The notes below the pieces were generated by a model that saw only the letters and a program-made list of their open reading frames with translations, did no database searches and was not told the origin of the DNA. A DNA stretch of 50,708 nt from a virus. Taxonomy: Duplodnaviria; Caudoviricetes. The DNA is taken from positions 1 through 50,708 of the IMG/VR virus record IMGVR_UViG_3300036766_000591. One strand, written 5' to 3'. Of the stretch, positions 3,289 through 39,255 are shown one piece after another. A program made the position numbers and the translations under genes. Within the stretch, counting starts at the first letter, position 1; every line of letters starts with the position of its first letter.

Positions 3289-3903
3289 GGTTGGCTCTCC
3301 GGTGGCGCGGCCTCGGCGACCGAGACCGCGATGTGCAAGTCGATGCGCGTGATCTCGGCGCAGACAGCGGCCAGCTCCATCACCAGCCTCGCCTTCCGTT
3401 CTTTGGCTTCGATGAGCGCGTCAGGCAGGTTCTTCTCGATCGCTTTCAAGACCGAGCCGATGCCGTTGCCGCCCCGCTCTGAGGTCTCGCGGCGCTCCGC
3501 GTCCCGCACGGTTTTGGGTTCCACGGTGCCGAGGTCGGGCTTGTTCACAGGCCGGCGCCGCGCGCGCGGTCCACCGGCGAGCCCAAGGGGCGCCCGAAGA
3601 GCAGCGCGGCGCCGAGCAGGAGGAGCGTCAAGCCGAGGAGCTTCATTCGGTATCCCACGCGTTGGGGTCGCGCGCCTGCGCGGCGAGCCGGATGCGCTGG
3701 CGGGCGGCAAGGATCGCAAAGTTCTGCGCGAAATGCCGGCCGAACTGGCGGCCAGCCTCGACCAACTCTTGGTGGCGGCGCGCCTTCTCCCACCGCTCGC
3801 GGTGCGCGCGCCAGAAGCCGACGCCCACGGTCCACGCACACACCAGCACGGTCAGCGCGAGATTGACGAGCGCCCAGTCGAGGAGCATCCGGCCGATGGT
3901 CAC
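3285..3903 (-). CDS. Three small genes: 3285-3548, 3545-3646 (hydrophobic peptide), 3643-3903 (membrane protein)
   Basis: Coupled overlaps; hydrophobic segments LLGLTLLLLGAALLF and WALVNLALTVLVCAWTVGVGFW. Confidence 0.6.
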
Positions 3904-5582
3904 GCGGCCTCCAGTCCGAGCGGGATCTGAGCCTCGGCGTCACGGATGCGCCGCTCGGCGATGGCGACATAGGCCGCCTCGCGCTCGATACCCAAGAAGC
4001 GGCGGCCTTCCAGGACGCACGCGACGCCGGTCGTGCCGGAGCCCATGAAGGGGTCGAGGGCGAGGCCCTGCGGCGGGGTGACGAGCCTAACGAGCCAGCG
4101 CATGAGGTCAACCGGCTTCACGGTGGGATGGTGATTGCGACGCGGAATGTCTACCACTTCGCGGCCCGTCATCGGGTTGATTTTGTGGCCTTCGGCGCCT
4201 ATTAGGACCACCATAGCCTCGCCATCCAGCCCCGCCTCGCGTTCGGCGCGGGACGCCTTCGCGCAGTAGAAGAAGCGCGAGGCGCCGCCGGAGTCGCCAG
4301 AGAAGTGACCCGACCTCTCACCCATTCTCTCGCCCATGTCGGTAGCCCGGCCCTGCCGTATTCCTCCGGGCTGCTTTTCGCCGCTCACCAAGTTCCCGCT
4401 CTGCGCGTCGAGCATCGCCGCCGCGTCCCCGTCCAGCACGACGTTCGCGGGCCAGCGGCCACTAAGCGATGCAGATGCAGCTGTCTCGGCTCCAGTGGCA
4501 GACATCCGGTATCCATCATGAGAGTGCTTCGCAGGGTCGAATCGAGTCATTTCTGGCTTCCCCGCAATCCGGCACGCCTCGATGTTCAGCGCCCCCGTGC
4601 CGTGCGCCGCCACGTTCGCCGCCACCGTGCCGATGAGTGGCTTGCGCGCGAGGATGATCGGCAGCCAATCAGGCGAGAGGTTGCTTTCCTCCGGGCCGGT
4701 TGCCTCGTCGGCAAACCTCCCGATAGCAAGCTCGCCCGCAGTAGTGGAGGCGAGTCTTTCGCACTTGGCAACCACGCTTCTGGAAATACCGACCGCAAGC
4801 GACGCATCGGACGCGACGCCACTTGTCGCGCTCAAGTCCGCGGTGGTGAAGGCGTGCGTGATCCGCGATAGGCACGACCGCAAGATTCTCAGGTCGGTTG
4901 TCAGCGCGCTCGCCGTTGCGGTGGTGTACCTGCTCCTGGGGTCCAAGAGGGCGCCCAAGCATCCGTTCAGCGACGACGCGATGCTCAAGAGCCCAGACGT
5001 TAGGAGCAAGTCGGATGAAGGCGTACCCATCTTTGCGGATGAAACGACCGTGCATAGGGCCTCCCTTGTCGTGGGAGCCAATATAGCCAGTTCTTCCTGC
5101 TCTGACAAGGGTTTACGCGCTAGTATCACGGGCTCGTGTGCTGGCTTGAGCGCCGTGCCCCAACCCTTCCACTCGCCGTCGAGGTTCAGCGACTTCGGGA
5201 AGCCGGAGCCGTAGAGCCAGCACAGACAGTCGCGAATCTCCCAGCCCGCATCCTCGATAGCGCAGGTCAGGCGGTGGAAGGTGCGCGTCCCGCCGAAGGC
5301 CAAGAGGTGCGCGCCGGGCTTCGCCACGCGCAGCACCTCAGACCACGTCTCGATGCCAGGGATCTCGGAGTCCCATGACTGGCCCATGAAGCCGCCGCCG
5401 GTGCCGATGCGCGAGCGTCCAGCGGGTGACGCTTCATTGCGCGACGCTTCGCCGCTCCCGCCCTTCTTGTTGGCGGTTAAGGCATACGGTGGGTCACAGC
5501 AAACGGCGTCCACGCTGCCCGGTGCCAGCGTCCGCAGCACGTCCAAGCAATCGCCGTGGATCACCCTCGCACGGTCGCTCAC
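3900..5582 (-). CDS. DNA N6-adenine/N4-cytosine methyltransferase (beta-class motif order) with an in-frame insertion of ~157 aa
   Basis: GDCLDVL, DPPY, GFPKS, GRWPAN, ASRFFYCAKA, HPTVKP, DPFMGSGTTG. GTG start at 5582 overlaps the upstream stop. Confidence 0.92.
   Translation of the reverse strand: MSDRARVIHGDCLDVLRTLAPGSVDAVCCDPPYALTANKKGGSGEASRNEASPAGRSRIGTGGGFMGQSWDSEIPGIETWSEVLRVAKPGAHLLAFGGTRTFHRLTCAIEDAGWEIRDCLCWLYGSGFPKSLNLDGEWKGWGTALKPAHEPVILARKPLSEQEELAILAPTTREALCTVVSSAKMGTPSSDLLLTSGLLSIASSLNGCLGALLDPRSRYTTATASALTTDLRILRSCLSRITHAFTTADLSATSGVASDASLAVGISRSVVAKCERLASTTAGELAIGRFADEATGPEESNLSPDWLPIILARKPLIGTVAANVAAHGTGALNIEACRIAGKPEMTRFDPAKHSHDGYRMSATGAETAASASLSGRWPANVVLDGDAAAMLDAQSGNLVSGEKQPGGIRQGRATDMGERMGERSGHFSGDSGGASRFFYCAKASRAEREAGLDGEAMVVLIGAEGHKINPMTGREVVDIPRRNHHPTVKPVDLMRWLVRLVTPPQGLALDPFMGSGTTGVACVLEGRRFLGIEREAAYVAIAERRIRDAEAQIPLGLEAA
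4669..5055 (-). CDS. HNH endonuclease (HNH_3-like) with a C-terminal zinc finger, nested in another frame of the methyltransferase
   Basis: DGY..., EHRVVAERMLGRPL..EQVHHRNGERADNRPENL, CVAC...YCGRAC; Shine-Dalgarno AAGGGAGG lies 4 nt before the ATG. Confidence 0.85.
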   Translation of the reverse strand: MHGRFIRKDGYAFIRLAPNVWALEHRVVAERMLGRPLGPQEQVHHRNGERADNRPENLAVVPIADHARLHHRGLERDKWRRVRCVACGRYFQKRGCQVRKTRLHYCGRACYREVCRRGNRPGGKQPLA

Positions 5583-6692
5583 GCCACACGCCCTTCGGCC
5601 TTGGCCGCCAGCGCGAGGTACGAATCCGCCAACTCGCGGAGCTGCGCGCGCGCCGAGTCGAAGCTCACGCGGTTCGCCGCGTCCGCCTTCTTGAGCGCGC
5701 GCTCGGCGCGACTGAGCGCGAACGCCGTGACGCTCGGCGTCTCGATGATCGGCAGGCCGCAATGCGCGCAGGGGGGTGGAGGAATCGTCTTCACGCGGGC
5801 GGCCCGTCCGGGGCGGGAGCCGCGAGCAGGGCGCGGGCGTGAAACGCGGCGTCCTCGCACATCGGCGCGAGTTGCCGGTCGCGCTCGTACCCGAGGTCGC
5901 GCATACGCGCGGCGGCGAACGTCAGGGCTTTCTCCGATTCGCGCAGCGCCGCGCGCAGCCGGTCGGCCTCCGCGCGGGCAGCGGCAACAACCTCGGTCAT
6001 ACCTGCCGCGCCTTCTTCGGCGTTGCGAGCGCGCCGCACGGCCTCGTCGTAGAGGTTCCGGCAGGCGGCGCGAGCCGCTTCGAGCGGCATGAAATCAGCC
6101 AGCCGATAGCCCGCCTCGGTGGCGCACTTGGCCTCGGACACGACGGCGGCCAGCGCCTCGCGGAAGGGGTCAGACATTCCGATATACCTCGGCGTTCGGG
6201 TGGCAGTACGGCGCGCGGTCGCTGTAGTGAGCGAAGTCGGTGGGCATGTAGCCGTTAGCGACCAGCCATGCGCGGCGCTGCTCGGGCGTAGCGAACGCCT
6301 TGAATATGCGGTCACGCTTCCCCGCTGGAACCGCGGGCGTCAGGAGCCAGAAGGGGCGTGCGATGGCCAGCGGCCAGTCGGATTGAATGAGCCGCGCAGG
6401 CTTCGGCTTACGCGGCATGGTCGGGCTCCGAGGTGAGGCTCGGTGTCGTGGGCGGCGCGGCCATCCATTCCCTCACGGCCTTCGCGTGGGCGCATTGGTC
6501 GTAGGAACCACAGGGCCCGCAGATCAGCAGCACCCGGTCGTCGCCCTCGTCGATGACGGGCCGCTTGCCGAACACGCGGGACGTGGTGCCGCTCGGGAGG
6601 TAGATGACGAGCCAGGCCGCGGTGGCGCCGATGCCCCGCTCGCGCGTGCTCAAGTCCACGGCGCGGACCGCGTAGGCCGCGAGGTTGGTCAC
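5579..6692 (-). CDS. Small early genes: 5579-5794 (CxxC), 5791-6177, 6170-6418, 6408-6692 (Cys/His, SWIM-like pattern)
   Basis: Overlapping coupled ORFs; CAHC and ICGPC...CAH patterns. Confidence 0.6.
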
Positions 6693-9977: not shown

Positions 9978-10249
9978 GCGAGCCCCCAGAGGAGCAGCGC
10001 GCCGAGCCCGATGCCCACCTCGCGCTCGGCCACGTCCATAAGCGACCACCCGTTGGCGTCCAGCGTCAATTCATACACGAGACTCAAGGCGGTCGCGAGC
10101 ACGAGCACCGAAAGCGGATGCACGCCGAAGGCGGCGAGCCACAGCAGCCCGCAGGCCAGCGCCGTCGTGAGCAGGCCGCTCAGCATCTCGGTCACGAGCG
10201 AGGGAAGCCCCCACGTCCAGCGCGTTAGGCGCAGCCAGAGGCCATTCAT
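9974..10249 (-). CDS. Multi-pass membrane protein (91 aa)
   Basis: About three hydrophobic segments; ATGA-coupled. Confidence 0.6.
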   Translation of the reverse strand: MNGLWLRLTRWTWGLPSLVTEMLSGLLTTALACGLLWLAAFGVHPLSVLVLATALSLVYELTLDANGWSLMDVAEREVGIGLGALLLWGLA

Positions 10250-11553
10250 ATTTCCTCGACCAGCGCGAACGGCACGCCATACCGCGCGACGGGCATCGCT
10301 TCGAGCGGCGAGAGCTCGCGCATTACCGCCAGGAAACTGCGGCGGTGCAGGTGCGTCGTGTCCTCGGGATCGTGGACGTAAAACAACTGCTTGCCGATGC
10401 CGAGCCGCGCCTGCATGTCGAACGGGCCTTCGAGGGCCTCCGTCTCGGGGAGATTGTTCAGCGCGAACGTCACCGTGCGCCGCTTGCTCTTGAGCTGGTA
10501 GACGGCCGCGCCGCCATCGGTCGGCGTGCGGATCGAGTCGTCTTCCCATCCGTGCTTGAGGCCATAGGCGGCGTTTATGGTGGGCTGGAAGCCGCCCGCG
10601 ATGATGAGCCGACCCACCTGCACGTAGCCTGCGCTGTTGCCCGTGTCGGCGACGTTGGTGCGCCAGTAGCGTGCGGACTGCGCGGCCGTGGTGACGTGGA
10701 GCGCGGAGAGGCTGTAGCCCTCGGCCTCTTCGGCGTCGATGCCCGAGGGCCAGCCTGCGACGTAGCCGGTGTCGTAGACGAGTTGCGCCGTGGCGGCGTT
10801 CCACGCTTGGATGTCGCCGATGTAGAACGCGGCGGTATCAGCGGCGCCCCCGTTGGCGGGAAACACAATCACGCGATTAGTATTCGCTGCGATGACGCCG
10901 GCGGCGAGTGCGGTAATACGAAATCCAGTCCCTTCGGCCACCGTCGAGATAACCGAGCCAAGTGTAGCCGTGACGACAGGCGTGGCGGCACTGAAATCAA
11001 TCGTGACGATTATTCGGTCGGTGCCTGTCGTTTGGTCATTAACTTTGACCACGTGCGCGGCGTAAACCGACGAGCGTTTCACAAGGAACGAGAATACCTT
11101 ATCCGCATTGGCCGTGAATATCAGGCTACGGTAGGTATATTCTGTGACCGCTCCGTCATCGTCCCCGATCAAATCCAAAGGGATGCCGTTGGAGGTGGTC
11201 GCCGCCGCGCTCCGTGTTGGCGTGCCGACATTCGTCCAGTCGGCATCGCCTACCGTCGCCCAGTCAATGATCGGCACGCTCGCCCAGCCGCGATGCCGCA
11301 CCGTGGCCGCCGTCGAGAAGTTGTGGCCCGACAGCGCGAGCAGCCTGACGCTGCGCGCGACGCCGAGGTCGGTGTCGAACTGGGTATCGGCCACGGCGGC
11401 GCTGGAGGAGCGCGCCACTTTCTGGATGTATCTGTCCTGCATGTTGCTCAGGGGCAGCGTCGCGCTCCACGGCGTACCGATCGTGGAGATGACAGGCGAA
11501 TAGGTCACGCCGACGTCACTCCACAGAGGCCATCCTAACAAAACGCTACTCAT
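10246..11553 (-). CDS. Tail protein (distal-tail-like) with an internal beta-rich insertion
   Basis: Phage-tail-like N- and C-termini (ARYWR, GY.QVGRL, RRTVTF.L, final EEI); the middle part has lower GC. Confidence 0.7.
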   Translation of the reverse strand: MSSVLLGWPLWSDVGVTYSPVISTIGTPWSATLPLSNMQDRYIQKVARSSSAAVADTQFDTDLGVARSVRLLALSGHNFSTAATVRHRGWASVPIIDWATVGDADWTNVGTPTRSAAATTSNGIPLDLIGDDDGAVTEYTYRSLIFTANADKVFSFLVKRSSVYAAHVVKVNDQTTGTDRIIVTIDFSAATPVVTATLGSVISTVAEGTGFRITALAAGVIAANTNRVIVFPANGGAADTAAFYIGDIQAWNAATAQLVYDTGYVAGWPSGIDAEEAEGYSLSALHVTTAAQSARYWRTNVADTGNSAGYVQVGRLIIAGGFQPTINAAYGLKHGWEDDSIRTPTDGGAAVYQLKSKRRTVTFALNNLPETEALEGPFDMQARLGIGKQLFYVHDPEDTTHLHRRSFLAVMRELSPLEAMPVARYGVPFALVEEI

Positions 11554-12257
11554 GATCTGCTCTGGCCAACCGTTATGAAGTCAACCTGGAGAGTCCCCAC
11601 GCTCGCCGCCGCACTTTCTTTCCCGATGCGGATGACCGGCTGCAAGGCCAAGGCCGCCACTTGGTCCATGCGGAATGTGGTCGCGCTCGCGACCCGTGCG
11701 CCGTCGATGTAGAAGCGGATCGCGGCCGTGTCGTCTATCTCGATTCTCACAACCGTCCATTGATTGGCGACAAGCGTGACGCCGCTTGCGATGAGGCTTT
11801 GCTCATGCACCGTGTCGTCGCTCTCTAGGGTGATAGCCCCAGACCCATCCAACCTCGCCCAGATGCTTTCCGCCACCGTGTTGACGGCCGCGTTGTGGTC
11901 GCCACAGAGGCCGACGACCGCCACGACGGAGCCGGTCGGCAGCACCGTGAAGCGTACCCGCGCCTCGAAGAACAGCTTTTGGTTGAGCGTGAGTGTACGT
12001 TGATTGCCCCAGTCCACGCCCGCGAGCTGTATCTCGTTCGTCGCGTCGAGCGCCAGGGCATATACGCCGCTCGGCGCGTCCCCGATCATGGCCTCGCCGG
12101 CGCCGTTGGTGTCGCGCACGGTCCAGTGATCAGACTCAATGGGATCACCCAAGAAGTCGTCCTTGAACCACACCGGGCACAGCGCGCGGATCGTCTCGTC
12201 GGTGCTGCTGTCGAAATAATGAAGCCACCCGCCGAAATATCTTGTCTTGAGGCTCAT
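11550..12257 (-). CDS. Virion protein with a ConA/lectin-like beta-sandwich
   Basis: FKDDFLG, FFEARVRF, W..VRIEID...FYIDG, LQVDFI; likely start is the ATG at 12257. Confidence 0.65.
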   Translation of the reverse strand: MSLKTRYFGGWLHYFDSSTDETIRALCPVWFKDDFLGDPIESDHWTVRDTNGAGEAMIGDAPSGVYALALDATNEIQLAGVDWGNQRTLTLNQKLFFEARVRFTVLPTGSVVAVVGLCGDHNAAVNTVAESIWARLDGSGAITLESDDTVHEQSLIASGVTLVANQWTVVRIEIDDTAAIRFYIDGARVASATTFRMDQVAALALQPVIRIGKESAAASVGTLQVDFITVGQSRS

Positions 12258-12266
12258 ACCGACCCC

Positions 12267-12295
12267 TTGCTGGTAGCACGCGAGCGCGCTAGATT
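12267..12295 (+). promoter_or_regulatory. Promoter of antisense HNH cassette 1 (leaderless)
   Basis: TTGCTG-N17-TAGATT; the ATG is 7 nt after the -10 box. Confidence 0.6.
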
Positions 12296-12302
12296 TCCAC
12301 CC

Positions 12303-12443
12303 ATGAAAGCCATGTATTGCAAGCGGGGCCACCGCCTCACGAAAGCCAACCGCGCGCCGGACGGGCGCTGCCGCATCTGCCGCCGGAAGTTCGGCACGAT
12401 CCGCATGCGCGCGTACCGCAAACGGAAGCGGGCCGAGCCGTGA
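12303..12443 (+). CDS. 46-aa zinc-finger peptide (CxxGH...CxxC)
   Basis: MKAMYCKRGHRLTKANRAPDGRCRICRRK...; paralog at 15511-15645; GTGA overlap with the HNH gene. Confidence 0.75.
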   Translation: MKAMYCKRGHRLTKANRAPDGRCRICRRKFGTIRMRAYRKRKRAEP

Positions 12444-13021
12444 CGGGCGTGTTCGTGGCGTGGAATCCGAAGAAGCCTAACGGGCCCGGCTGGATCGAGG
12501 ACGGGAGCGGCTGCCACGTCTGGATTGGGGCCAGAGACAGAAAGGGCTACGGCCAAGTTCGCCAAGGACGCGGCAAGGGGAGGCTTCGATATGTGCATCG
12601 CGTCCGTTACGAACGCGAGATTGGGCCGATCCCCGACGGGCTTCCGCTCGATCATTTCGTCTGCAACAATGGCGCGGGAGGATGCTGTAATCCCCATCAT
12701 TGCCGGCCGGTCACGCGCCGCGAGAACGCACTCCGGAGCGAAAGCCGCGCCGCGACGAACGCCGCCAAGACGCATTGTCCGAGAGGCCACGCCCTTGTTG
12801 GCGACAACCTCATTGCGTCCAAACTGAGGCGGGGCCGTGAGTGCCGGACATGCAACACGAAAAGATGTGCCGAGCGTTACGCCGCCAACCGAGACACCGT
12901 GCTCGCACGGCGCAGGGCCTTGATGACACCCGCCAAACGGGAGGCCAAGAGGGCCAGCGACCGCGCCGCCTACCGCGCGAAACGTCCCGAGGTCAAGCGG
13001 CAAACGAGGTACAGTGAGTGA
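12440..13021 (+). CDS. HNH endonuclease with a C-terminal KTHCPxGH...CxxC zinc finger
   Basis: SGCHVWIGA..KGYG, HRVRYE..IGPIP.GL.LDH.VC...CCNPHH..PVT..EN. Confidence 0.9.
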   Translation: MTGVFVAWNPKKPNGPGWIEDGSGCHVWIGARDRKGYGQVRQGRGKGRLRYVHRVRYEREIGPIPDGLPLDHFVCNNGAGGCCNPHHCRPVTRRENALRSESRAATNAAKTHCPRGHALVGDNLIASKLRRGRECRTCNTKRCAERYAANRDTVLARRRALMTPAKREAKRASDRAAYRAKRPEVKRQTRYSE

Positions 13022-13026
13022 CACTC

Positions 13027-15465
13027 TCATCGCCATAACGTTAGGCTCAGTTGGCGTTTCGATGCATCTGGCTCCAGCCCAATTATGCGGAACGACGGCC
13101 CGCCCGCGAGCGCGTACCGGCTGTGCGTGAGGCTCACCACATCGCCGAGGTCCAGCGTCTCCGTCGTCGCGTGGTCCGAGTCCGAAGGCACGACGATGTT
13201 ATAGCGGTCGCGCTGCACGCCCCGGAGCGCCTGGCGTCGCGTCGCCTCCGTCAAGGCATTGGCCGCGAGGTAGATCAGCGAGTCCTCGACGGTCTGGGGG
13301 GCTAAGGGGTGAGCCAGTTGCACCGTCGTGTCCTCGGCCTTGGCCTCGCGCCACTCGGCGGCGAGGAACGCGCGCCGCGCGTCCGTCACGCCTCCGGCCA
13401 CGCCAGCGACTTGGACCGACCAATTTTTCGCATAACGGATCGTGGAGCGCCAGACCGGAAGGCCCTTCGTTTCATCGTTGACCGGCACGCGCTCAAGCGG
13501 CTTGAGGAGGTCATTGGCCGTGAAGTTGACGACGGGCGTCCCGCTCGGCGCGGTGAACTGCTTGATCCGCATGACGCCCGCGCGGTCGGCGCCCCACCAG
13601 GCGCCCACGGACTGCGCGATCCAATCGAGCACGTCGGCCACGGACCACTCGTCGGTCCCCGACCAGAAGCCCAAGACCGAGGCGTTCGCGGTATCGAGCG
13701 CGGCGATGTCCGCGCTGGAGAACTCTTGCAGCGGCGCGCCGAGCGGGTCGGAGAGCAGGCGCGCGAACATCTGGCCCGCCGTGCGGTCGGAGGCGGCGGC
13801 GCCCTCGGTCACGTCCGCGGTGATGAGCCCGGCGGGCGGGGAGCCGAGGCGGATGTAGCCGCCGGGGAGGTACGCCTTCCACAATCCAGCTAGAGGAGCC
13901 TTTGTATCATCGAGGAGGTCGGCGGCGTCCGCATAGGTCTGCGTCACTAGTCCAGTCGCATAGTAAATCTCTTGCACCTGCCCGATGACCGCAAAAGTAC
14001 TTGCCAGGGGAGTCCACGCGGACCCATCAGCAGATACCCCAATAACGCCGTCGTTATGTCCCGAGAGAAATATCTCCGCTGCGAAGGTGACTGTGACCAC
14101 CGTTGCACTCAGGGCCGTGGTACGCTTTGCCCATGTGAGACCATCGGCTGACCCCCAGAGCCCATCATAAGTTGCCTGCACCCATTGTCCTGCCCCATAG
14201 GCGACCCGTCCCGCCAAGGCGGCGCTAGCGGTGCGGGCGGTCCACGATGCCCCGTCGGTCGAGGTTGAGGTCTTGCCGCTTTGCCCCACCGCTACGAAGA
14301 GAGCGCCATTCCAGTTTACGTCGGCAATGTAGGAAGCGCCGAATTGGCTCGTATGGACGGTGAAGGTGATGAAATCGGTTGTTGAATAGAGCTTGCCCGC
14401 ATCACCGACGAATACCCAAAGGCTGTTGCCGTAAGCCGCCCCAAAAATACCGCTTCCCCCAAAGGGGTTCGGGAGAACCCCGAGAGCGTCGGCTACCATG
14501 GCCCACGTAACCCCATCCGACGAGGTGGCGATCTTGCCGCCGTTTCCGACTGCGACAAAGATACTGTTTCCGTAGGTCACGGCTTGGACATCGGCGGCGC
14601 CCCAATTCGTCAGCGTGCGCAAAGTCCAGAGAGTGCCGTCGGGAGACGAGTAGCATACTCCTCCCTGCGCTATCGCGACGATTGTTCCACCGCCGCAGGC
14701 AAAGCGCAGGTAGTTGCTGCTGATACTATTCAGGGGCGTTATCTGCTCCCACGTCTGTCCATCGGGCGAAGTGGCAGACCTCTGGATCAATCCGCCACCG
14801 TTTCCGTTCGCCAGCCAAGTAGACGAGCCCAGCGCGATTCCCTCATCGTAGGCCGCACCCACGCTCGCCACCGGCCCGTCGTTCACCTGATAGATGAGTT
14901 TGCTGGTGTTCGCGCAGGGCACGCTCACGTTGAGCACGGACCCGAACACGCGCGGTATCGGCTTCCCGGCCAGGTCGTCGGGCGTGCCGTCGAGTCCATC
15001 GGGGAGCGAGTTGGTGCCGCCGTACTTACGAGGCTGGAGCGGGACAGCGAGAGCCAGCATGTTGTCGCGGATTTTCAGGACCAGCGACGATTGCGAGGCC
15101 TCGATCTGTTCCGCTGTCCCCTCAAAGACGGTTTCGAATCCCGATGGATAAGCGGCCCCGACCATGCCACGCCTCACGATAACAGAACGCCCATCCCATC
15201 CATACCCGAGCCACGCATCCAAGGCGCCGTCTTCGTTGATTGCGACAAGGTCGCCGAACGACATCCGCGAGCGACCCGACGTAGTACTGCTGGAGAACAA
15301 GTCTCTTTTCAGTAATACGGGCTGGCGCAGTCGGCCATCATAATATGCGTTAGGCGGGACCTCAGTGGGCCGAGTCGCGAACCCGGTCGTCGAGAGACGG
15401 AGCGCGACGATTCCGACCGTGGCCGGGTCCCAGGGGCGCAGCTCCGCCACGTAGAGATCGGTCAC
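13027..15465 (-). CDS. Large tail protein (hub/tip) with an inserted beta-propeller of S.DG.TW repeats
   Basis: Lies after the tape measure; GKPIPRVFG; repeats SPDGQTW, SPDGTLW, SSDGVTW, STDGASW, SADGLTW, SADGSAW. Confidence 0.8.
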   Translation of the reverse strand: MTDLYVAELRPWDPATVGIVALRLSTTGFATRPTEVPPNAYYDGRLRQPVLLKRDLFSSSTTSGRSRMSFGDLVAINEDGALDAWLGYGWDGRSVIVRRGMVGAAYPSGFETVFEGTAEQIEASQSSLVLKIRDNMLALAVPLQPRKYGGTNSLPDGLDGTPDDLAGKPIPRVFGSVLNVSVPCANTSKLIYQVNDGPVASVGAAYDEGIALGSSTWLANGNGGGLIQRSATSPDGQTWEQITPLNSISSNYLRFACGGGTIVAIAQGGVCYSSPDGTLWTLRTLTNWGAADVQAVTYGNSIFVAVGNGGKIATSSDGVTWAMVADALGVLPNPFGGSGIFGAAYGNSLWVFVGDAGKLYSTTDFITFTVHTSQFGASYIADVNWNGALFVAVGQSGKTSTSTDGASWTARTASAALAGRVAYGAGQWVQATYDGLWGSADGLTWAKRTTALSATVVTVTFAAEIFLSGHNDGVIGVSADGSAWTPLASTFAVIGQVQEIYYATGLVTQTYADAADLLDDTKAPLAGLWKAYLPGGYIRLGSPPAGLITADVTEGAAASDRTAGQMFARLLSDPLGAPLQEFSSADIAALDTANASVLGFWSGTDEWSVADVLDWIAQSVGAWWGADRAGVMRIKQFTAPSGTPVVNFTANDLLKPLERVPVNDETKGLPVWRSTIRYAKNWSVQVAGVAGGVTDARRAFLAAEWREAKAEDTTVQLAHPLAPQTVEDSLIYLAANALTEATRRQALRGVQRDRYNIVVPSDSDHATTETLDLGDVVSLTHSRYALAGGPSFRIIGLEPDASKRQLSLTLWR

Positions 15466-15474
15466 GCCGCGCTC

Positions 15475-15503
15475 TTGACACTAGGCCGGTAGTGGCTTAC
15501 ACT
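15475..15503 (+). promoter_or_regulatory. Promoter of antisense HNH cassette 2 (leaderless)
   Basis: TTGACA-N17-TACACT; the ATG is 7 nt after the -10 box. Confidence 0.8.
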
Positions 15504-15510
15504 TCCCGCC

Positions 15511-15645
15511 ATGAGACGCACGCATTGCAACCGAGGCCACCGCCTGACATCCGCCAACCGCCTAGCAGACGGGCGCTGCGCGAAGTGTCGCCGCAAGTCA
15601 GCCGCGCGATACATGCGCGGGTATCGGAAGCGGGCCGCCAAATGA
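15511..15645 (+). CDS. 44-aa zinc-finger peptide (CxxGH...CxxC)
   Basis: MRRTHCNRGHRLTSANRLADGRCAKCRRK...; paralog of 12303-12443; ATGA overlap with the HNH gene. Confidence 0.75.
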   Translation: MRRTHCNRGHRLTSANRLADGRCAKCRRKSAARYMRGYRKRAAK

Positions 15646-16151
15646 CGGGCGTCTTCGTGGCATGGAGCCGTTATCGCAATTCCCCTGGCTGGATCGAGGA
15701 CGGGTCGGGGTGCCATATCTGGATCGGCGCGCGAAGCCAAGACGGCTACGCCCACGGATGGGATGCCGAGAACCACTGCAACGGCGCTATCCATCGCATT
15801 CGCTATCGGCGCGAGGTCGGCCCGATTCCCGTCGGCATGGAACTCGACCACTATGTTTGCAGCAATGGTGCCGGGGGCTGCTGCAACCCGCACCACTGCC
15901 GGCCGGTGACGCCTCGCGAGAACTCGCTCCGTAGTGGGGCGCAATCTTCGCTCAACGCCGCGAAGACGCATTGCCCGCAGGGCCATCCGCTGTCCGGGGA
16001 GAATCTCATCAAGTACTATGTCGAGAGACGCGGAATGCGATGCTGCCGAACCTGCGGCCAGCAAGAACGGCGGCGCTACAAGGCGGCACACCGCGAAGAG
16101 CGCCGCGTCAAGGCTCGGGCATACCGCCTCGCCCGCCGAAAGGCCGCCTAA
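15642..16151 (+). CDS. HNH endonuclease, paralog of 12440-13021
   Basis: MTGVFVAW...PGWIEDGSGCHIWIGAR, LDHYVC.NGAGGCCNPHHCRPVT, KTHCPQGH. Confidence 0.9.
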   Translation: MTGVFVAWSRYRNSPGWIEDGSGCHIWIGARSQDGYAHGWDAENHCNGAIHRIRYRREVGPIPVGMELDHYVCSNGAGGCCNPHHCRPVTPRENSLRSGAQSSLNAAKTHCPQGHPLSGENLIKYYVERRGMRCCRTCGQQERRRYKAAHREERRVKARAYRLARRKAA

Positions 16152-16154
16152 CCT

Positions 16155-16478
16155 ATGCGCTACCTGCTGCTTGTCCTGCTCTTGGCGGGCTGCTATGCGG
16201 ACCCGACCGCGCCGCCCGCCGTCCAGCCTAACGCGGCGCCCGCGATTCTGTTTACGAATGGCTGCGGCTTCACGGCAGGGTTCAGCCTGTTCGTGGATGA
16301 CGCCGCGCCGGAAATGTTCTTGATCGCGGACAGTGGCGCCGTCGAGAAGCGCGTCCTCGCCGGACGACACGCGGTCCAGTACATCGCCTTCGACGGGAAC
16401 GCCAAGCCGCTGGCGGTTCGTCGCGACTCCCTGACCGTTCTCGGCCCGACGCCCTACATCATGCGCTGCGCGCCGTAG
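16155..16478 (+). CDS. Predicted lipoprotein (moron)
   Basis: Signal peptide II with a lipobox: MRYLLLVLLLAG-C. Confidence 0.8.
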   Translation: MRYLLLVLLLAGCYADPTAPPAVQPNAAPAILFTNGCGFTAGFSLFVDDAAPEMFLIADSGAVEKRVLAGRHAVQYIAFDGNAKPLAVRRDSLTVLGPTPYIMRCAP

Positions 16479-16480
16479 GC

Positions 16481-18835
16481 TCATACCTTCAGCCCTTCCA
16501 GCACGAGGGCCAGCTTCCGCGCGTTGTCCTGCGCCTCGGCCCGGAGTGCGACAACCTCCTCCGTCAACTGCGTGAAGCCCGCCAGCAGTAGGGCGCTCTG
16601 CTGCTGCGACTCTAGGACGAGCGGATCGTCCAATGCCGTCTTGGGCGGCTTCCCGTCGAGCGGCGGGGGCGGCGGGAAGCCCGGGGGTGTGCCCCCGTCC
16701 TTGGGCGGCTTGAGGAACACGCTCGTGTTGTCCTGAATCGCGACGAGCGCATCCAACATCTGCTGCTGGATGCTGCGCTGGCCCTCGAAGATCTTGGCGA
16801 TGGCGTCCGTGTCGGCCAGGACGCGCGTGAAGTCCACGGCGTACCGGCCGCCGGAGGCGTTCACCGCCCGCGACGCCGCGAGGAACGCCTGCGCCACCTG
16901 CGGCAAGCGGCCCGCCGCCGTCTGGTCCCCGGTCTGCGCCTGCGCCAAGACGGCTTCGTACTGCCGCCGTGCCTCGGCGAGTTGCTGAATAGGCGAGAGC
17001 GTCGTGAGCGGCCCGGTGCGGAGCGAGGTCTGGAAGTCGCGCAGCGAATCAATCGTGGTCGTCAGGCCCGCGATGGTCGCCTTGATCTTGTCGGCCGCGA
17101 AGCGGATCGCCTCGGCGCGCTGCACTTCCACGAGTGTCGCCCGCTCCTGGGCGTCGGCACCCGCCAGCACGGCATCGGCATACTCGCGCTGCTGCTGGAG
17201 CGCGAAGGCCATCGCGTCGGCTTCGGCGTCATGGCCCTGGGCGCGGAGCATCCGCACGGCGAGGTCTTCGATGCGCTGCTGGCGCAGGATGGCCGCCTCT
17301 TCGCGCAAGTGTATGACGCGGATGGCTTCCAGAAACGCAATCTCGACAAGGCGGCGTTCGTATTCCGCCTGCGCGGCAGCGTTGGCCGCGCGGTTCGTAC
17401 CCTGAAAACCTGGACCGACGCCCGCGCGCACGGCAGCGGCCTCCGCACGCAACCGGGCCGCGTCGTCATGCGCTTGGCGGATAGCCGCCTGGAGGCCGGT
17501 ATCCGTTCCGGCCACGGCGCGGCGGAATGCATCGAGGTCATCGGTGAATTGCTTCAGCGCCTCAGCCTGGAGTCGCCGTGCCTCGCGAACGCGCGCCGCG
17601 CTACCGAACAGGTCACTGACGAATCCGCCGATAGCGTTCCCCACCAGCGCGAGCCCGCCCGCGACCGTGCTGAAGCCGACGAGCGACTGAAGCGCCGAGC
17701 CACCTATCGCGCCACCAATCCCGCTCCCGCCCGGCATGGTCCTGTCGCCTCCAGGAGCACCGCCACGCGATCCGCCCGTCGCGGCCTTGGCTGCCTCCTG
17801 CTCCGCGGCGATGAGCTTCATGGCCGCGACGACGTTCGCGTTCGCCTCCTCACGCCATAGCCGCAGCGCCTTCGCCTGGGCTTCGAGGGAGGCCGTCAGT
17901 TCCGCGTTCGCGCGGAGCTGGAGCGCGGCGGTCGCCGTGGCCGTGTTGCGAAGGCTGGCGTCGAACATCTCCAGCGCCCGACGGTGGGCTTCGATGCCCT
18001 CCTTCGCCTGCTCGTGGGCCGCAGCCGAAGCGTGCTGGGTTCGCGCCTCATGGCCCGCCGCCACGTCGAGCGCGTTGATCGCGGCGGTCAGTCGCGTGTT
18101 GTCTTCGGTCAGTCGAATGACATCCGCGGCATTAGCCAGCGCGCCGACGTTGGCGCCGACGCGGAATCGCGACGGGTCGGTGATGGAGACATCCGTGCGA
18201 GCCTGGGCTTGCGCCAATGCCGCACGATTCACCGCCAACTGTACCGCCAGGAGGGTCCGATTCTTGGCAAGCAACTTCTCGACTTCGTCGTTCGTATCCC
18301 CGATCGCCCCATTGAGGAGTTGCCAGGCGGCGGCAAAGGCCGCGAGGCCCGACAGGATGCCGACAAGCCAGGGATTCCCCAGCGCGAACACCTGAAGCCG
18401 GGCGGCGGCCATCGCGATGCCGCCAATGCCGCGCGAGGTCACCAGGGCCGCCGCCTCGGATGCGACCCCGAACGCCTCAAACCCCTGGGCGCCGCGGCGC
18501 GCATCCATCGTCACCGCGCGCAGGCCCCGGTTCACCTGGTTCCCCACCGCGGCCAGCCGCTCCTGTGTCTTGCTCGTCATCTCGGTTGTGGTCGCCAGCG
18601 AGGCCATGTCGGCCTTGAGGGTGCGGAGCCCGGCCGCGTATTCCACTTCCGTCATCCGGCCGATGCGGTAGGACTGGGTGAGTGTCGTCAGTCGGCTTTG
18701 GAGTGCGGTGACGGCGGCCGAGGCCGCCTCCATCTGCTGCGCGGTGCCCGTGACGGCGCGCTGCGCCCGTTGCATCTCGGTGTGAAATGCCGTGGTCTCC
18801 GCAGCAATCCTCACCATCAGCGTGGCAGCGATCAT
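16481..18835 (-). CDS. Tape measure protein
   Basis: 784 aa, Ala-rich and helical; N-terminus IAATLMVRIAAET..F; follows the tail chaperones. Confidence 0.88.
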   Translation of the reverse strand: MIAATLMVRIAAETTAFHTEMQRAQRAVTGTAQQMEAASAAVTALQSRLTTLTQSYRIGRMTEVEYAAGLRTLKADMASLATTTEMTSKTQERLAAVGNQVNRGLRAVTMDARRGAQGFEAFGVASEAAALVTSRGIGGIAMAAARLQVFALGNPWLVGILSGLAAFAAAWQLLNGAIGDTNDEVEKLLAKNRTLLAVQLAVNRAALAQAQARTDVSITDPSRFRVGANVGALANAADVIRLTEDNTRLTAAINALDVAAGHEARTQHASAAAHEQAKEGIEAHRRALEMFDASLRNTATATAALQLRANAELTASLEAQAKALRLWREEANANVVAAMKLIAAEQEAAKAATGGSRGGAPGGDRTMPGGSGIGGAIGGSALQSLVGFSTVAGGLALVGNAIGGFVSDLFGSAARVREARRLQAEALKQFTDDLDAFRRAVAGTDTGLQAAIRQAHDDAARLRAEAAAVRAGVGPGFQGTNRAANAAAQAEYERRLVEIAFLEAIRVIHLREEAAILRQQRIEDLAVRMLRAQGHDAEADAMAFALQQQREYADAVLAGADAQERATLVEVQRAEAIRFAADKIKATIAGLTTTIDSLRDFQTSLRTGPLTTLSPIQQLAEARRQYEAVLAQAQTGDQTAAGRLPQVAQAFLAASRAVNASGGRYAVDFTRVLADTDAIAKIFEGQRSIQQQMLDALVAIQDNTSVFLKPPKDGGTPPGFPPPPPLDGKPPKTALDDPLVLESQQQSALLLAGFTQLTEEVVALRAEAQDNARKLALVLEGLKV

Positions 18836-34110: not shown

Positions 34111-35560
34111 CTAGGCGAGCCTCGGGCCGTGCAGTACGCGCCCGCTCTCCGGCGAGACTTCCTTGCGGCCCATGATCGCGTGCCCGGCCATCGCCAGCAT
34201 GCCCATCACCACGAGGTCGCTCCCCTCCGGCTTCGCCAAGCTGAACTCGCCGGTGCCCTGGTTGTAGCGCAGCACCACCTCCAGGGTGACGGGAGACGCA
34301 CCGCCATTCGATGCTGTCATCTGCGATACTCCCTTCTTCGCTTGGGAAGGCGCGGGGGCGAGGACGGAGAACGCCGCCATCGCCGCCGAGCCTTACGTTC
34401 AGACTTCTCGGAAGACCAAGCTGAAGTTCCAGCCGGTGAGCGTCCCCGGGGCCGCCGGGAACTGCACCCCGAAGCCCGAGGCGGCGCTGGCGTTCATCGT
34501 GAACGTCTCCGCCGGGGTCGCCACCCAGAGGTAGCCGTTGAGGACGTTGAAGCTGTCCGACTTCACGATGGTCTCCGTGCCCGCGCCCTGCGCGCTCGCG
34601 TTGATGCCGCAGGTGCCCGCGGCCCCCGCCGTGCCGCCGGTGATGGCCGAGACCGCGTCGATCAGGCTGGTCTTCTTGGGCGTGAAGGCCGTCAGGGTCG
34701 GGAAGGCCGTCACCTTCGTGATGAAGTCAATCCGCTGCTGCGCGCTGGTGGCGTTGGCCGCCTGCGAGCAGTCCACCCGGAGGATCTCGATCGAGACCGT
34801 CGTGCCCGGGTTGATGAACATGATGGTCACGGCCGCGTTGGCGACCGTGATGTTGGAGCCGGTGATGACGTACGTGCCGCGCATGGTCACTCCTCGTTAG
34901 GTGAATTACTACCCGCTCGCGCGGGACGAACGCTCGTTACATCGCCATTAAGGCTTGCATCTGCTCCGTTTTCGCCAGTCCGAAAGGCACGCCCGCACCG
35001 GAGGCATCGGTCGCGGACCAGTCGTCGAGATAGGGTTCAGCGTCCAGCGCAGCGCCGTAGTATGTCGCTAGTCCAGCATACCCTTTCGCTGTGATGCTTG
35101 TATCCGTGACTGAAATGCGCGAAACGGTATCAATTAAAACTGAGATTGTGCTGCCAACCATACGCAGCAGACACACCTTTGCTGTTGTGGGTTCGTCACC
35201 GACATAGGTTCCTATGCTAGTAACAGCGCCCGATTTCTTGTAGAGTGTCCAAGTGCCCGCACTCACACGAACGAAATAACAACTGCCGTCTGACGACGAG
35301 GCAATACGTCCTGCGGGGCCATGACTCGTGCCCCCAGAAGCAACATGCATGGTGCCCTGTACGTCGTAGTCTGCCCCCACTGGTTGAGCGGCGTTCCACA
35401 AATGGGCCTGAAAATCGTCTGCCACTTGAACTTGGATGTGGTTGGTGTTGATAACCATATTTGTGCCAGAGCCGCCCGTGACCTTGGTCCAGTTGGCGGA
35501 GTAGGTTTCGAGCACCGTGCCGTTGGCGCCGGTAAAAGCATCAGGACCAGCAAAAGCCAT
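34111..35560 (-). CDS. Virion accessory genes: 34111-34380, 34399-34890, 34937-35560 (lectin-like, lower GC)
   Basis: Ala/Thr/Gly-rich beta-type ORFs; D.F.G...LDDW motif in 34937-35560. Confidence 0.65.
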
Positions 35561-37517: not shown

Positions 37518-37804
37518 GCGGCCGTTCTCCTTCGCGTCTCGATCTTCCCGCGGAGCTCCGGGTAGCGGTCGAGCAGCTCGTCGCTGATGCGCGAGCGGTA
37601 GGAGTTGTCACAGTGGATCTTGAGCGCGCCGCGGGTTTGGGCGACGAGCAGGTTGACCTCTACCCGCTTGGCGCCGCTCCGCGCCAGCGCGATCGCGCGG
37701 ACGGCGACCGCCTCGAAGACCCGCTCGCCCTCGTCGCTGGCGCGCCAGCGCGCATAACGTTGCGACAGCGCGTCGCGGAGCGGGAGCGCGAGCTGCGCGG
37801 TCAC
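37514..37804 (-). CDS. Hypothetical early protein
   Basis: GTGA-coupled; KI..NSY...YPEL...ETR. Confidence 0.6.
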   Translation of the reverse strand: MTAQLALPLRDALSQRYARWRASDEGERVFEAVAVRAIALARSGAKRVEVNLLVAQTRGALKIHCDNSYRSRISDELLDRYPELRGKIETRRRTAA

Positions 37805-39255
37805 GCGGCACCTTCGATCTGGTCGATGGCCGCGAAGATGGCCCACGCCACGGCGGGCACGATGGCGTTTCCGACGAGACGGCATCCCGCCGCGCGGTTG
37901 GGCATCCCGCTCACGACGGGCCAGCGATTCTCGCAGCCGCCACCGAACGCAAAGGCTTCCACGATGTTGTCGCTTTCACGCGACCGGGAATAGTCCAACC
38001 AAGCTTCCATTGCCTGTGGTGCCAGCGCATGTGGCAGGGCCCGCACACGACCTGCAAGTTCTGCCGCGCGCTGTTCGCGGGATCGCCATCCATGTGATGG
38101 ACTTGGAGTCCCGCAGTAGCGGCACAGACTTCGCATTTCTCCAGCCTGCCCACCGTCTGTCGCGCGATGGTCTTCCACCGCCCATAACTGCGTACCGGAC
38201 GGGAATTCGCGCACGAAAGCGAGCAGAACCGCCTCCGCCGAAAGACACCGTAGTCCTCCAGTCGGCCACTGATCCGCTTGCGCGTCATCGGCACACCGCA
38301 CCACTGGCAGGGCTTCAAAGGCGCTGGCTTCACTGGCATGGGCACCTAACGCCGTCCTTTCTTCTGGCGGAGATACACGACATTCAACCAGCCAGCGGGA
38401 AAACCCATCAACCAAGCTCCGAAATTGGGATTGTACGCCGCCCGCTGGCCCGTCGGTTTCGCCGTCGCCGCCGCTAAGCTGAGGTTGTGATTGCCCTTGA
38501 TCCCCTCGAACGCCTTCACCTCGCCCGGCTTCGGCGGGGACGAGCCTAACGGTGCCATCCGCCCCTCGGATGGCAACGGCGTCGGCCCAAGGCGCGAGAA
38601 GTTGACCGATTGTCGGCCCAGCAGCGCATTCTCTAGCACGCCTGCCACACTCGCTCCGTCCTTCCCGTCCCGCGTCGTCGGCGTCGCCCAACCCGCTAGC
38701 GCGTCCTCCAGTTTCCGTATCCCGCCGACCAGCGTCTTCCGCTCTGCCTGGCCACCCCCCGTTGGCGTCTTGGGCGTGGGCCACGATCCAGACCCGTTCC
38801 CGGCGGTGGGGGGCACCAACGTCGGCCGCGGCGACACTGTCCCACGTCGCATCGTACCCGAGGCGGGCCAGGTCTGAGAGAACTTCGCCGAACGCACATC
38901 CGTCGTTGACGGAAAGCAGTCCAGGGACATTCTCGAAAAGGCACCAGCGGGGTCGAAGCTCCCCAACGCATCGGGCGACTGCGGGCCAGAGCCATCGGCT
39001 ATCGCTCGTGCCCAACCGTCGGCCAGCGTGGGAAGCGGGCTGGCAGGGGAAGCCGCCAGCGAGGATGTCGGGTCGCTCAACGCTGCTCCAGTCCACCGTA
39101 GTGAGGTCGCCCACGTTCCGCGCCTCGGGGAAATGATGTGCCATGACCCGACACGCCCACGGCTCGATCTCCGAGTACCATGCCGTCGTCCAGCCTAACT
39201 GACGGGCCGCGAGATCGAAGCCTCCTTGGCCTGCACACAGCGAACCCAGCCTCAC
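37801..39255 (-). CDS. DNA C5-cytosine methyltransferase, alpha polypeptide (motifs I-VIII and X)
   Basis: GSLCAG.GG, GGFPCQP, FENVPG, GAPHRRERVW, GNAIVP; GTG start at 39255. Confidence 0.9.
   Translation of the reverse strand: MRLGSLCAGQGGFDLAARQLGWTTAWYSEIEPWACRVMAHHFPEARNVGDLTTVDWSSVERPDILAGGFPCQPASHAGRRLGTSDSRWLWPAVARCVGELRPRWCLFENVPGLLSVNDGCAFGEVLSDLARLGYDATWDSVAAADVGAPHRRERVWIVAHAQDANGGWPGRAEDAGRRDTETGGRASGLGDADDAGREGRSECGRRARECAAGPTIGQLLAPWADAVAIRGADGTVRLVPAEAGRGEGVRGDQGQSQPQLSGGDGETDGPAGGVQSQFRSLVDGFSRWLVECRVSPPEERTALGAHASEASAFEALPVVRCADDAQADQWPTGGLRCLSAEAVLLAFVREFPSGTQLWAVEDHRATDGGQAGEMRSLCRYCGTPSPSHGWRSREQRAAELAGRVRALPHALAPQAMEAWLDYSRSRESDNIVEAFAFGGGCENRWPVVSGMPNRAAGCRLVGNAIVPAVAWAIFAAIDQIEGAA
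37911..38345 (-). CDS. HNH endonuclease with an N-terminal zinc finger, nested in the +1 frame of the C5 methyltransferase
   Basis: CQWCG...FCSLSCAN; CEVC...QVHHMDGDPANS..NLQVVC..CH..WH. Confidence 0.82.
   Translation of the reverse strand: MPMPVKPAPLKPCQWCGVPMTRKRISGRLEDYGVFRRRRFCSLSCANSRPVRSYGRWKTIARQTVGRLEKCEVCAATAGLQVHHMDGDPANSARQNLQVVCGPCHMRWHHRQWKLGWTIPGRVKATTSWKPLRSVAAARIAGPS
38346..39080 (-). CDS. C5 methyltransferase beta-like polypeptide in the +1 frame (WPTP repeats, motif IX)
   Basis: WPTP/WATP and NPNFGAWLMGFPAGW; TTG start with a GGAG RBS; arrangement as in M.EcoHK31I. Confidence 0.7.
   Translation of the reverse strand: MSDPTSSLAASPASPLPTLADGWARAIADGSGPQSPDALGSFDPAGAFSRMSLDCFPSTTDVRSAKFSQTWPASGTMRRGTVSPRPTLVPPTAGNGSGSWPTPKTPTGGGQAERKTLVGGIRKLEDALAGWATPTTRDGKDGASVAGVLENALLGRQSVNFSRLGPTPLPSEGRMAPLGSSPPKPGEVKAFEGIKGNHNLSLAAATAKPTGQRAAYNPNFGAWLMGFPAGWLNVVYLRQKKGRR

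Follow-up and report, generated by a model that had tools for sequence, protein, structure and literature searches.

Stop-free antisense reading frames across two backward HNH endonuclease cassettes in a phage tail operon

We analyzed the complete record of an uncultured virus of the Caudoviricetes (Duplodnaviria; IMG/VR record IMGVR_UViG_3300036766_000591; 50,708 bp, ∼67% GC; this whole stretch is called the window below), in which two cassettes carrying HNH endonuclease genes lie backward within a row of tail genes. Each cassette is crossed on the strand of the tail genes by a stop-free open reading frame (ORF), here called a bridge ORF, that overlaps the stop codon of the tail gene before it and the start codon of the tail gene after it. 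Among homologous HNH genes, those embedded backward between opposite-strand genes had no aligned antisense stop in 12 of 17 cases versus 23 of 120 for those co-oriented with their neighbors (Fisher p = 3.6e-5), and the underlying depletion is specific to TTA, CTA, and TCA, the three sense codons that create such stops. The stop-freeness of the backward-embedded class is not a matter of chance, and it holds only for backward-embedded members. We consider it rather likely, if well short of certain, that each of the two minus-strand ORFs in the window is a pass-through frame maintained by selection, over which ribosomes would be carried from one tail gene to the next.

Geometry of the bridge ORFs

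The minus strand carries nearly all genes of the window (terminase, portal, protease, capsid, connectors, tail tube, chaperone, tape measure, endolysin, and replication), and its tail genes run in the order tape measure, 812-aa gene, 235-aa gene, and 435-aa gene. Two plus-strand cassettes break this row. The features concerned are as follows, with GC3 denoting GC content at third codon positions.

12254..13030, minus strand: bridge ORF 1, 258 codons plus stop (777 nt), from ATG 13030 to TGA 12254-12256
15462..16484, minus strand: bridge ORF 2, 340 codons, overlapping the tape-measure stop at its start (ATGA) and the GTG start of the 812-aa gene at its stop (GTGA)
16481..18835, minus strand: tape-measure gene, 784 aa (phrog_973), upstream of cassette 2
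13027..15465, minus strand: 812-aa tail gene (phrog_8917, E = 6.7e-92), between both cassettes
11550..12257, minus strand: 235-aa LamG/concanavalin-like tail-region gene (Pfam Laminin_G_3), downstream of cassette 1
10246..11553, minus strand: 435-aa gene, its ATG overlapping the stop of the 235-aa gene (ATGA)
12440..13021, plus strand: HNH endonuclease gene 1 (HNH1), 193 aa (Pfam HNH_3, E = 1.7e-6, 28 bits versus a cutoff of 24.8; phrog_826, E = 4.9e-35)
15642..16151, plus strand: HNH endonuclease gene 2 (HNH2), 169 aa (phrog_826, E = 3.3e-31; Pfam HNH_3 at 24.2 bits, just under the 24.8 cutoff)
16155..16478, plus strand: putative lipoprotein passenger gene, 107 aa, with a signal peptide ending LLAGC as read from the sequence and a GC3 of 0.86
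12303..12443, plus strand: zinc-ribbon-like ORF 1, 46 aa, its stop overlapping the GTG start of HNH1 (GTGA), in another frame than HNH1
15511..15645, plus strand: zinc-ribbon-like ORF 2, 44 aa, its stop overlapping the ATG of HNH2 (ATGA); weak phrog_826 match (E = 7.6e-4)
12267..12295, plus strand: putative cassette 1 promoter, TTGCTG-17 nt-TAGATT, proposed from alignment to the cassette 2 promoter and below the threshold of the consensus scan
15475..15503, plus strand: cassette 2 promoter-like site, TTGACA-17 nt-TACACT, a consensus match at 10 of 12 positions

An earlier note, made from the sequence alone, had described bridge ORF 1 as a 258-codon frame with ATGA overlaps at both ends that runs through the whole antisense cassette and its promoter and encodes what looks like junk, and our analysis agrees with it in coordinates and sequence. 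The ATG of the frame (13030-13028) overlaps the TGA of the 812-aa gene (13029-13027) as ATGA, and its TGA (12256-12254) overlaps the ATG of the 235-aa gene (12257-12255) in the same way; a second in-frame ATG, at 13036, stands two codons earlier. Bridge ORF 1 shares the codon register of HNH1 (the coordinates of both are 2 mod 3) and also traverses a 45-nt promoter spacer and, in a different frame, the zinc-ribbon-like ORF 12303-12443. The residues A, R, G, V, and P abound in its product, its GC content at first codon positions (GC1) exceeds its GC3, as expected for the antisense of a gene, and neither bridge product matched any Pfam or PHROG family. ATG 12257 is the true start of the 235-aa gene, since its homologues align to ∼90% of the 260-aa version given by the longest ORF and most are 231 to 253 aa long among the full-length matches listed. 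An AAGGGG Shine-Dalgarno-like motif stands 5 nt ahead of it.

Bridge ORF 2 spans three plus-strand genes and their promoter. Both reverse ORFs are codon-aligned with forward genes, and there are no stops in their 258 and 340 codons. The 812-aa gene touches both, through a GTG start that overlaps the end of bridge ORF 2 and a TGA stop that overlaps the beginning of bridge ORF 1, and five 4-nt overlaps follow one another in a row, from tape measure to bridge ORF 2, 812-aa gene, bridge ORF 1, 235-aa gene, and 435-aa gene. Overlaps of this type (−4) occur at all four bridge junctions versus 7 of 48 other adjacent minus-strand pairs. The convergent stop codons of sense and antisense genes are only 5 nt (cassette 1) and 2 nt (cassette 2) apart, and no terminator-like sites were found on the minus strand within either bridge.

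Codon avoidance in the window and among relatives

Stops in an aligned antisense frame arise only from the sense codons TTA, CTA, and TCA, which are rare throughout this genome (84 of 13,838 codons in 60 called ORFs). They are absent from the Leu and Ser codons of HNH1, HNH2, and the passenger gene (0/15, 0/16, and 0/16; 0/47 in total) and account for 2 of 5 such codons in the zinc-ribbon-like ORFs, which the bridges cross in another frame. The probability that a frame would be open, P(open), was estimated by resampling synonymous codons with the protein sequences held fixed. Under genome-wide codon usage P(open) was 0.24 for bridge ORF 1 and 0.032 for bridge ORF 2, under the usage of GC3-matched genes it was 0.13 and 0.009, and with codons permuted within each gene it was 0.39 and 0.28. 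By an arithmetic estimate, the right phase adds a factor of ∼1/3 at each end, or ∼1/9 more for both ends. That both bridges arose together by chance is unlikely on these numbers, which come from a post hoc reading of one genome.

Relatives of the HNH genes were collected with their flanking DNA from public viral and metagenome contigs in scans yielding 12, 8, 80, and 80 loci (numbered with the prefix L), the last two scans representing the best 80 of >570 relatives. With one fragment of 63 residues from the end of a contig (L025) dropped and both cassettes of the window added, the set held 181 entries, which formed 157 clusters at 85% protein identity, with 24 near-duplicates merged. Flank orientation was assigned by a codon-model gene caller trained on the loci themselves, ignoring ORFs that overlap the HNH gene; a classifier based on a GC3 threshold misjudged high-GC loci such as L014 and was replaced by this self-trained model. 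The clusters comprised 120 co-oriented members, 17 backward-embedded members, 10 with mixed flanks (one neighbor on the opposite strand, the other on the same strand), and 10 of another or unknown type. Matches to PHROG families (baseplate, major head, major tail, Neck1, endolysin, tail fiber, and glycosyltransferase) confirmed the opposite-strand flanks in most backward loci. Counts covered the HNH coding sequence, beginning with the tblastn match and ending with the stop codon, and the survey was kept to HNH genes rather than widened to other backward genes, because a miscalled shadow ORF has an open antisense frame by construction.

The excess of open frames in the backward-embedded class remained when the window's two cassettes were left out (10/15 versus 23/120; p = 2.8e-4). 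At the codon level, TTA, CTA, and TCA made up 17 of 267 Leu and Ser codons in backward-embedded genes versus 307 of 1782 in co-oriented genes (p = 9.5e-7), while the control set of A-ending Val, Pro, Thr, Ala, Gly, and Arg codons did not differ between the classes (222/1176 versus 1465/7529; p = 0.66). The ratios for eleven other A-ending codons ranged from 0.88 to 1.56, and the other two antisense frames showed no difference (ratios of 1.07 and 1.12). We considered strand-specific mutation bias as a cause of the avoidance and rejected it, since the A-ending codons of six other families are unchanged. HNH genes with mixed flanks (10 loci) had 25 TTA, CTA, or TCA codons among 154, resembling the co-oriented class.

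GC content does not account for the difference, as a permutation stratified by the GC3 of the HNH gene gave p = 1e-5 (8e-5 without the window). Fully open frames were found in 3/5 backward-embedded versus 2/27 co-oriented members at a GC3 of 0.5 to 0.6, in 4/5 versus 4/26 at 0.6 to 0.7, in 4/6 versus 5/21 at 0.7 to 0.8, and in 1/1 versus 11/24 at 0.8 to 1.0. Pairs matched by nearest relative pointed the same way, with the backward member lower in 11, higher in 2, and tied in 4 (p = 0.022). The earlier note had raised the question of whether homologous cassettes commonly have broken antisense frames, and the answer depends on orientation: the frame is broken in 97 of 120 co-oriented members and in 5 of 17 backward-embedded ones. 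The two HNH genes of the window are themselves near synonymous saturation, with 22 of 51 four-fold sites (43%) identical between HNH1 and HNH2 versus 37% expected at saturation, and their shared stop-freeness is therefore not a result of recent common descent.

The junctions recur as well. The start of the bridge frame overlaps the upstream stop as NTGA in four backward loci (L076, L107, L122, and L129), and also in L109 if the PHROG-supported Neck1 ORF at 1712-2596 is taken as the upstream gene; the upstream end shows a 1-nt overlap in L169, direct adjacency in L009, and a 4-nt gap in L008. Downstream, L122 and L109 show a 4-nt overlap between the bridge stop and the next start, L107 an overlap of 1 nt, and L008 a 1-nt gap, so that both ends are tight in L122, L107, L008, and L109. 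The design of the window is repeated exactly in L122 (66.7% GC), with ATGA, 5 nt, the complement of the HNH stop, and ATGA at the far end. Four of these loci (L008, L076, L107, and L129) have only 51 to 58% GC, and open frames of 170 to 300 codons at such values are not expected from composition. In 7 of 8 tight convergent junctions the stop-to-stop spacer is 2 mod 3 (5, 5, 5, 8, 8, 2, and 2 nt; 9 nt in L009), the phase that places the aligned frame in the −4/−1 coupling register (binomial estimate against 1/3, 0.003). In L168 (2124-2929) the bridge seems to take the form of a chain, in which a 206-codon aligned ORF with its own Shine-Dalgarno-like motif is followed by a 60-codon ORF that overlaps its stop and whose own stop overlaps the start of the next gene.

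Four syntenic relatives (L188 to L191) carry homologues of the tape-measure, 812-aa, 235-aa, and 435-aa genes in the same order and no HNH match at E ≤ 1e-5. Their tape-measure/812-aa junctions read GTGA, ATGA, TGAcATG, and TGATG, and the spacer between the 812-aa and 235-aa genes is 1, 1, and 8 nt in three of them and 223 nt in L188. Because the flanking genes normally abut in these cassette-free relatives, we conclude that the cassettes sit at junctions that are normally coupled. The 812-aa gene ends in CGC TGA, GGC TGA, AAG TAG, or CGC TAG in the four relatives, none of which gives an overlapping ATG, while the CGA TGA of the window creates the ATG of bridge ORF 1. The 223-nt spacer of L188 (3778-4000), which may be the scar of a lost insert, is crossed by a same-strand ORF (3459-4004) that ends in ATGA on the start of the next gene.

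Several observations weigh against selection for open bridges. The backward-embedded class has only 17 members, flank orientation comes from our own gene caller, and cassette 2 of the window was placed in the class by hand. The five broken members include L108 with 10 antisense stops, L085 with 2, and L026 with 1, together with L019, which has 2 stops and is loosely placed between replication genes, and L008, where both of the 2 stops fall in the stretch over which the end of the upstream gene overlaps. When pooled, TCA shows no depletion (13/127 in backward-embedded versus 64/544 in co-oriented genes), because these exceptions hold all the stops. The tree suggests that orientation class changed at least 15 times among the 17 members, with poor branch support, and an independent-pairs test was unusable, with a single pair on supported branches; L107 and L109, each preceded by a Neck1 gene, may go back to a single old insertion. 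In L022, L100, and L168 the first start codon is 56 to 139 nt past the upstream stop. Within the window, 5 of the 18 ordinary genes of 150 to 300 codons on the minus strand have no stop in the aligned antisense frame, and the co-oriented HNH genes of the same genome have 0/134, 0/144, and 3/325 antisense stops. Together with the 5 of 21 co-oriented relatives that are fully open at a GC3 of 0.7 to 0.8, in line with the caveat of the earlier note that codon-aligned antisense frames are often open in GC-rich genes, these counts mean that bridge ORF 1 alone could be due to chance, which it exceeds only weakly. Finally, coupling to a bridge may not be essential for the downstream tail genes of the window, since both have a Shine-Dalgarno-like motif of their own.

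A pass-through role and its alternatives

The explanation that we favor is that the late minus-strand transcript would read through both backward-inserted HNH cassettes and that ribosomes finishing the upstream tail gene would restart at the start codon overlapping its stop. They would then translate the stop-free antisense of the cassette, giving a product that is probably functionless, and terminate on the stop overlapping the start of the next tail gene, where they would restart. The messenger of the operon would thereby stay continuously translated, the termination-reinitiation coupling of genes that normally abut would be preserved, and no long naked RNA, otherwise 0.8 to 1.0 kb of untranslated sequence, would be exposed to Rho-dependent termination or nucleases. 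The role of Rho in polarity was established from enterobacteria. Synonymous choice in the HNH and passenger genes, avoiding TTA, CTA, and TCA, would hold the frame open, an option that exists only because both frames share a codon register. We infer the translation of the bridges, and which of these benefits was selected, from the observed geometry, the observed codon avoidance, and the enrichment of that avoidance in backward-embedded relatives. The earlier note had suggested in much the same way that bridge ORF 1 carries ribosomes across the insertion; this reading gains support at the level of the class, where the depletion is specific to three codons and to the aligned frame, the overlaps recur in independent loci, and the flanking genes abut when no cassette is present, and for bridge ORF 1 itself it is plausible from the sequence.

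The open frames could instead be chance shadow ORFs, by-products of GC3-rich codon usage whose ATGA overlaps are relics of the insertion junctions, with nothing selected or translated. Pseudo-ambigrammatic features arising from extreme GC3 bias have been reported (PMC13262655), and several properties of the window agree with such an origin, including the alignment of the frame with the HNH gene with GC1 above GC3, the genome-wide rarity of the three codons, the P(open) of 0.13 to 0.39 for cassette 1, the open frames in co-oriented relatives of like GC3, and the ATGA and GTGA at the tape-measure junction of cassette-free relatives, from which the upstream ATGA of bridge ORF 2 may be inherited. 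A chance origin would, however, be needed twice in one genome, with the right phase at four junctions and the passenger gene in frame, and for cassette 2 the P(open) under the two usage-based schemes is 0.009 to 0.03. It leaves unexplained the dependence of the depletion on orientation, the open frames of 170 to 230 codons at 51 to 58% GC, and the coupling phase of 7 of 8 convergent spacers, and the upstream ATG of bridge ORF 1 has no counterpart at the ends of the cassette-free 812-aa genes. We regard chance as an unlikely account of the bridges. A 4-bp target duplication at ATGA could explain the coupling signals but not the open frame.

Two further alternatives grant the frames a function of another kind. 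In one, the antisense ORFs encode functional proteins of their own, such as a regulator or immunity factor of the endonuclease; their start codons, position in the operon, and coupling resemble those of real genes, two database proteins resemble bridge ORF 1 over 83 to 97% of its length, and translated antisense overlapping genes under purifying selection have been reported in Pseudomonas aeruginosa (PMC8850804). The bridge products nevertheless belong to no Pfam or PHROG family and have the composition of an antisense translation, and their amino acid sequence is not conserved beyond the constraint on the HNH protein, because the HNH four-fold sites, which are the first codon positions of the bridge, are near saturation. 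Bridge ORF 2 also spans the unrelated lipoprotein gene and a promoter, and in relatives its place is sometimes taken by an upstream gene that is extended (L026 and L008) or by chains of short ORFs (L168). Judging from these sequences, openness rather than a protein appears to be what is kept; a bridge is probably not a protein-coding gene in its own right, and we hold this alternative to be highly improbable. In the other, the frame is open for the sake of endonuclease control, with ribosomes on the late messenger unwinding or masking a sense-antisense duplex and setting the timing of HNH expression. Each cassette has its own promoter-like site facing the operon, the convergent stops leave no room for terminators, and sense and antisense RNAs should coexist. 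Such control predicts neither the exact stop/start overlaps with both flanking genes nor the lack of depletion in HNH genes with a single opposite-strand flank, and it seems to us very unlikely.

The closest published analogue of the bridges appears to be the ambigrammatic narnaviruses, in which a codon-aligned stop-free reverse ORF lies over the RNA-dependent RNA polymerase gene (DeRisi et al. 2019, PMC6884476; Retallack et al. 2021, PMC8316113). These reports describe translation of the reverse ORF as needed for persistence, and their authors suggest that the act of translation matters rather than the protein. The two systems share a long stop-free ORF opposite a real gene, in the one codon register that allows synonymous stop removal, with stop-freeness conserved among relatives and a product without homologues. 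Narnaviruses, as described there, are eukaryotic RNA viruses whose reverse ORF covers the whole genome segment, whereas the bridges span a mobile DNA cassette in a double-stranded DNA phage, lie on the strand of the host operon, and are start/stop-coupled to unrelated flanking genes, the proposed benefit being continuity of the operon. Termination-reinitiation coupling at overlapping stop and start codons such as ATGA and TGATG is documented (Huber et al. 2019, PMC6728339; 2023, PMC10666635), and the −4 and −1 overlaps between co-directional genes of one operon are found at every junction of the chain described here. The four bridge junctions (ATGA, GTGA, ATGA, and ATGA) have the geometry of coupled pairs, so coupling is predicted; in the pairs of those studies both partners are functional genes, whereas here one seems only to pass ribosomes on.

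The T4-type seg and mob genes, free-standing homing endonuclease genes that include the antisense-oriented segD (reviewed in PMC2988022), are likewise inserted between conserved phage genes. According to that review, an invading endonuclease must fit the transcription program of its host to persist, some overlap the stop codons of their neighbors, the endonuclease itself is coupled to the upstream gene, and segD is probably poorly expressed; the passages of the review considered here describe no stop-free frame on the opposite strand. The window cassettes fit the free-standing HNH type in having an HNH domain and in being absent from the same site in L188 to L191, and their homing is putative. 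Shadow ORFs or pseudo-ambigrammatic frames due to GC3 bias (PMC3454372, PMC13262655) resemble the bridges in that composition alone often leaves a GC3-rich gene open in its aligned antisense frame, which applies to any single cassette, but composition does not predict orientation dependence, specificity for three codons, or the phase of the junctions. On sequence grounds, a bridge can be described as an ambigrammatic coding pattern whose stop-freeness goes beyond composition among backward-embedded members. Full-text literature searches found no description of such a stop-free bridge design in phages, with subscription journals outside their coverage.

More broadly, we tentatively suggest, as a possibility for which the case is still short of even, that backward-inserting homing-endonuclease cassettes are translationally transparent mobile elements, under selection (perhaps preadapted) to be ambigrammatic, with end modules that splice a stop-free frame into the operon. 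These modules may consist of convergent stops spaced 2 mod 3 at one end and, at the other, a fixed 45-nt promoter/Shine-Dalgarno spacer ending in the start codon of the neighbor. If this were true, a selfish gene could reside in antisense orientation within an essential late operon while costing it almost nothing, and selection would act on a reading frame solely for its openness and not for its product. A relay of ribosomes would explain how selfish endonuclease genes persist inside essential, tightly coupled phage operons, and it would give codon-aligned ambigrams a concrete, testable function; if general, it would amount to a new rule for the coexistence of mobile genes and operons and a DNA-phage counterpart of the narnavirus ambigrams. 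Phage annotation would have to change, as gene calls at these loci tend to include only one of the two, the HNH gene or the bridge, and nonpolar inserts could be designed for engineered phages or operons.

Cassette contents and other elements of the window

Cassette 2 (15511-16478) is a paralogue of cassette 1, with 68% DNA identity and 56% identity between the HNH2 and HNH1 proteins. In both, a 45-nt spacer separates the ATG of the zinc-ribbon-like ORF from the start codon of the adjoining tail gene; the two spacers align without gaps, start codon included, and hold a putative sigma-70-like promoter, weaker in cassette 1. The promoter-like site ends 7 nt ahead of ATG 12303 in cassette 1 and of ATG 15511 in cassette 2, a distance that suggests leaderless transcripts in both. 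An identical 11-base string, AGGCTCATACC (plus strand), occurs at the downstream end of cassette 1 (12250-12260) and at the upstream end of cassette 2 (16477-16487), and because of it bridge ORF 2 and the 235-aa gene both begin Met-Ser-Leu; the string may mark a target site common to both or be a coincidence.

The zinc-ribbon-like ORFs 12303-12443 and 15511-15645 are homologous to each other, and each of these 44- to 46-codon frames, with a CxxC...CxxC pattern, precedes its HNH gene in the +1 frame with a stop/start overlap. In relatives such as L022 and L008 the HNH domain is joined in frame to a zinc ribbon of this kind on its N-terminal side, and the separate ORF could be a coupled small gene or reflect a programmed frameshift. 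The passenger gene (16155-16478) starts 3 nt past the HNH2 stop in the same frame as HNH2 and had no Pfam or PHROG match; a moron is one possibility, with superinfection exclusion as an example of its role.

A tblastn search with HNH1 against annotated phage records matched 123 records, and a search of genome contigs for close relatives of the cassette found none. No RNA run was listed for positions 11550-16484. Viral-contig scans with the 435-aa and 235-aa proteins singly gave no match, and a scan with the 812-aa protein alone gave only 4 distant loci, which were excluded from the analysis.

Elsewhere in the window, a third plus-strand ORF lies between minus-strand genes (34538-34900; 120 aa, GC3 of 0.97, no family match). 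It is almost spanned by a 163-codon minus-strand ORF (34399-34890) that is out of codon register with it, starts 47 nt past the upstream stop, and ends 18 nt ahead of the next start. On the minus strand, a C5 DNA-methylase ORF (37801-39375) agrees with its Pfam model in the first half only. A second minus-strand ORF, in a different frame (38346-39080), matches a methylase PHROG, and a co-oriented HNH ORF (37911-38345) starts right after the stop of this second ORF; the region has the look of a methylase that is split or frameshifted and carries an HNH insertion. An N6/N4 methylase at 3900-5762 has a long insert relative to its profile.

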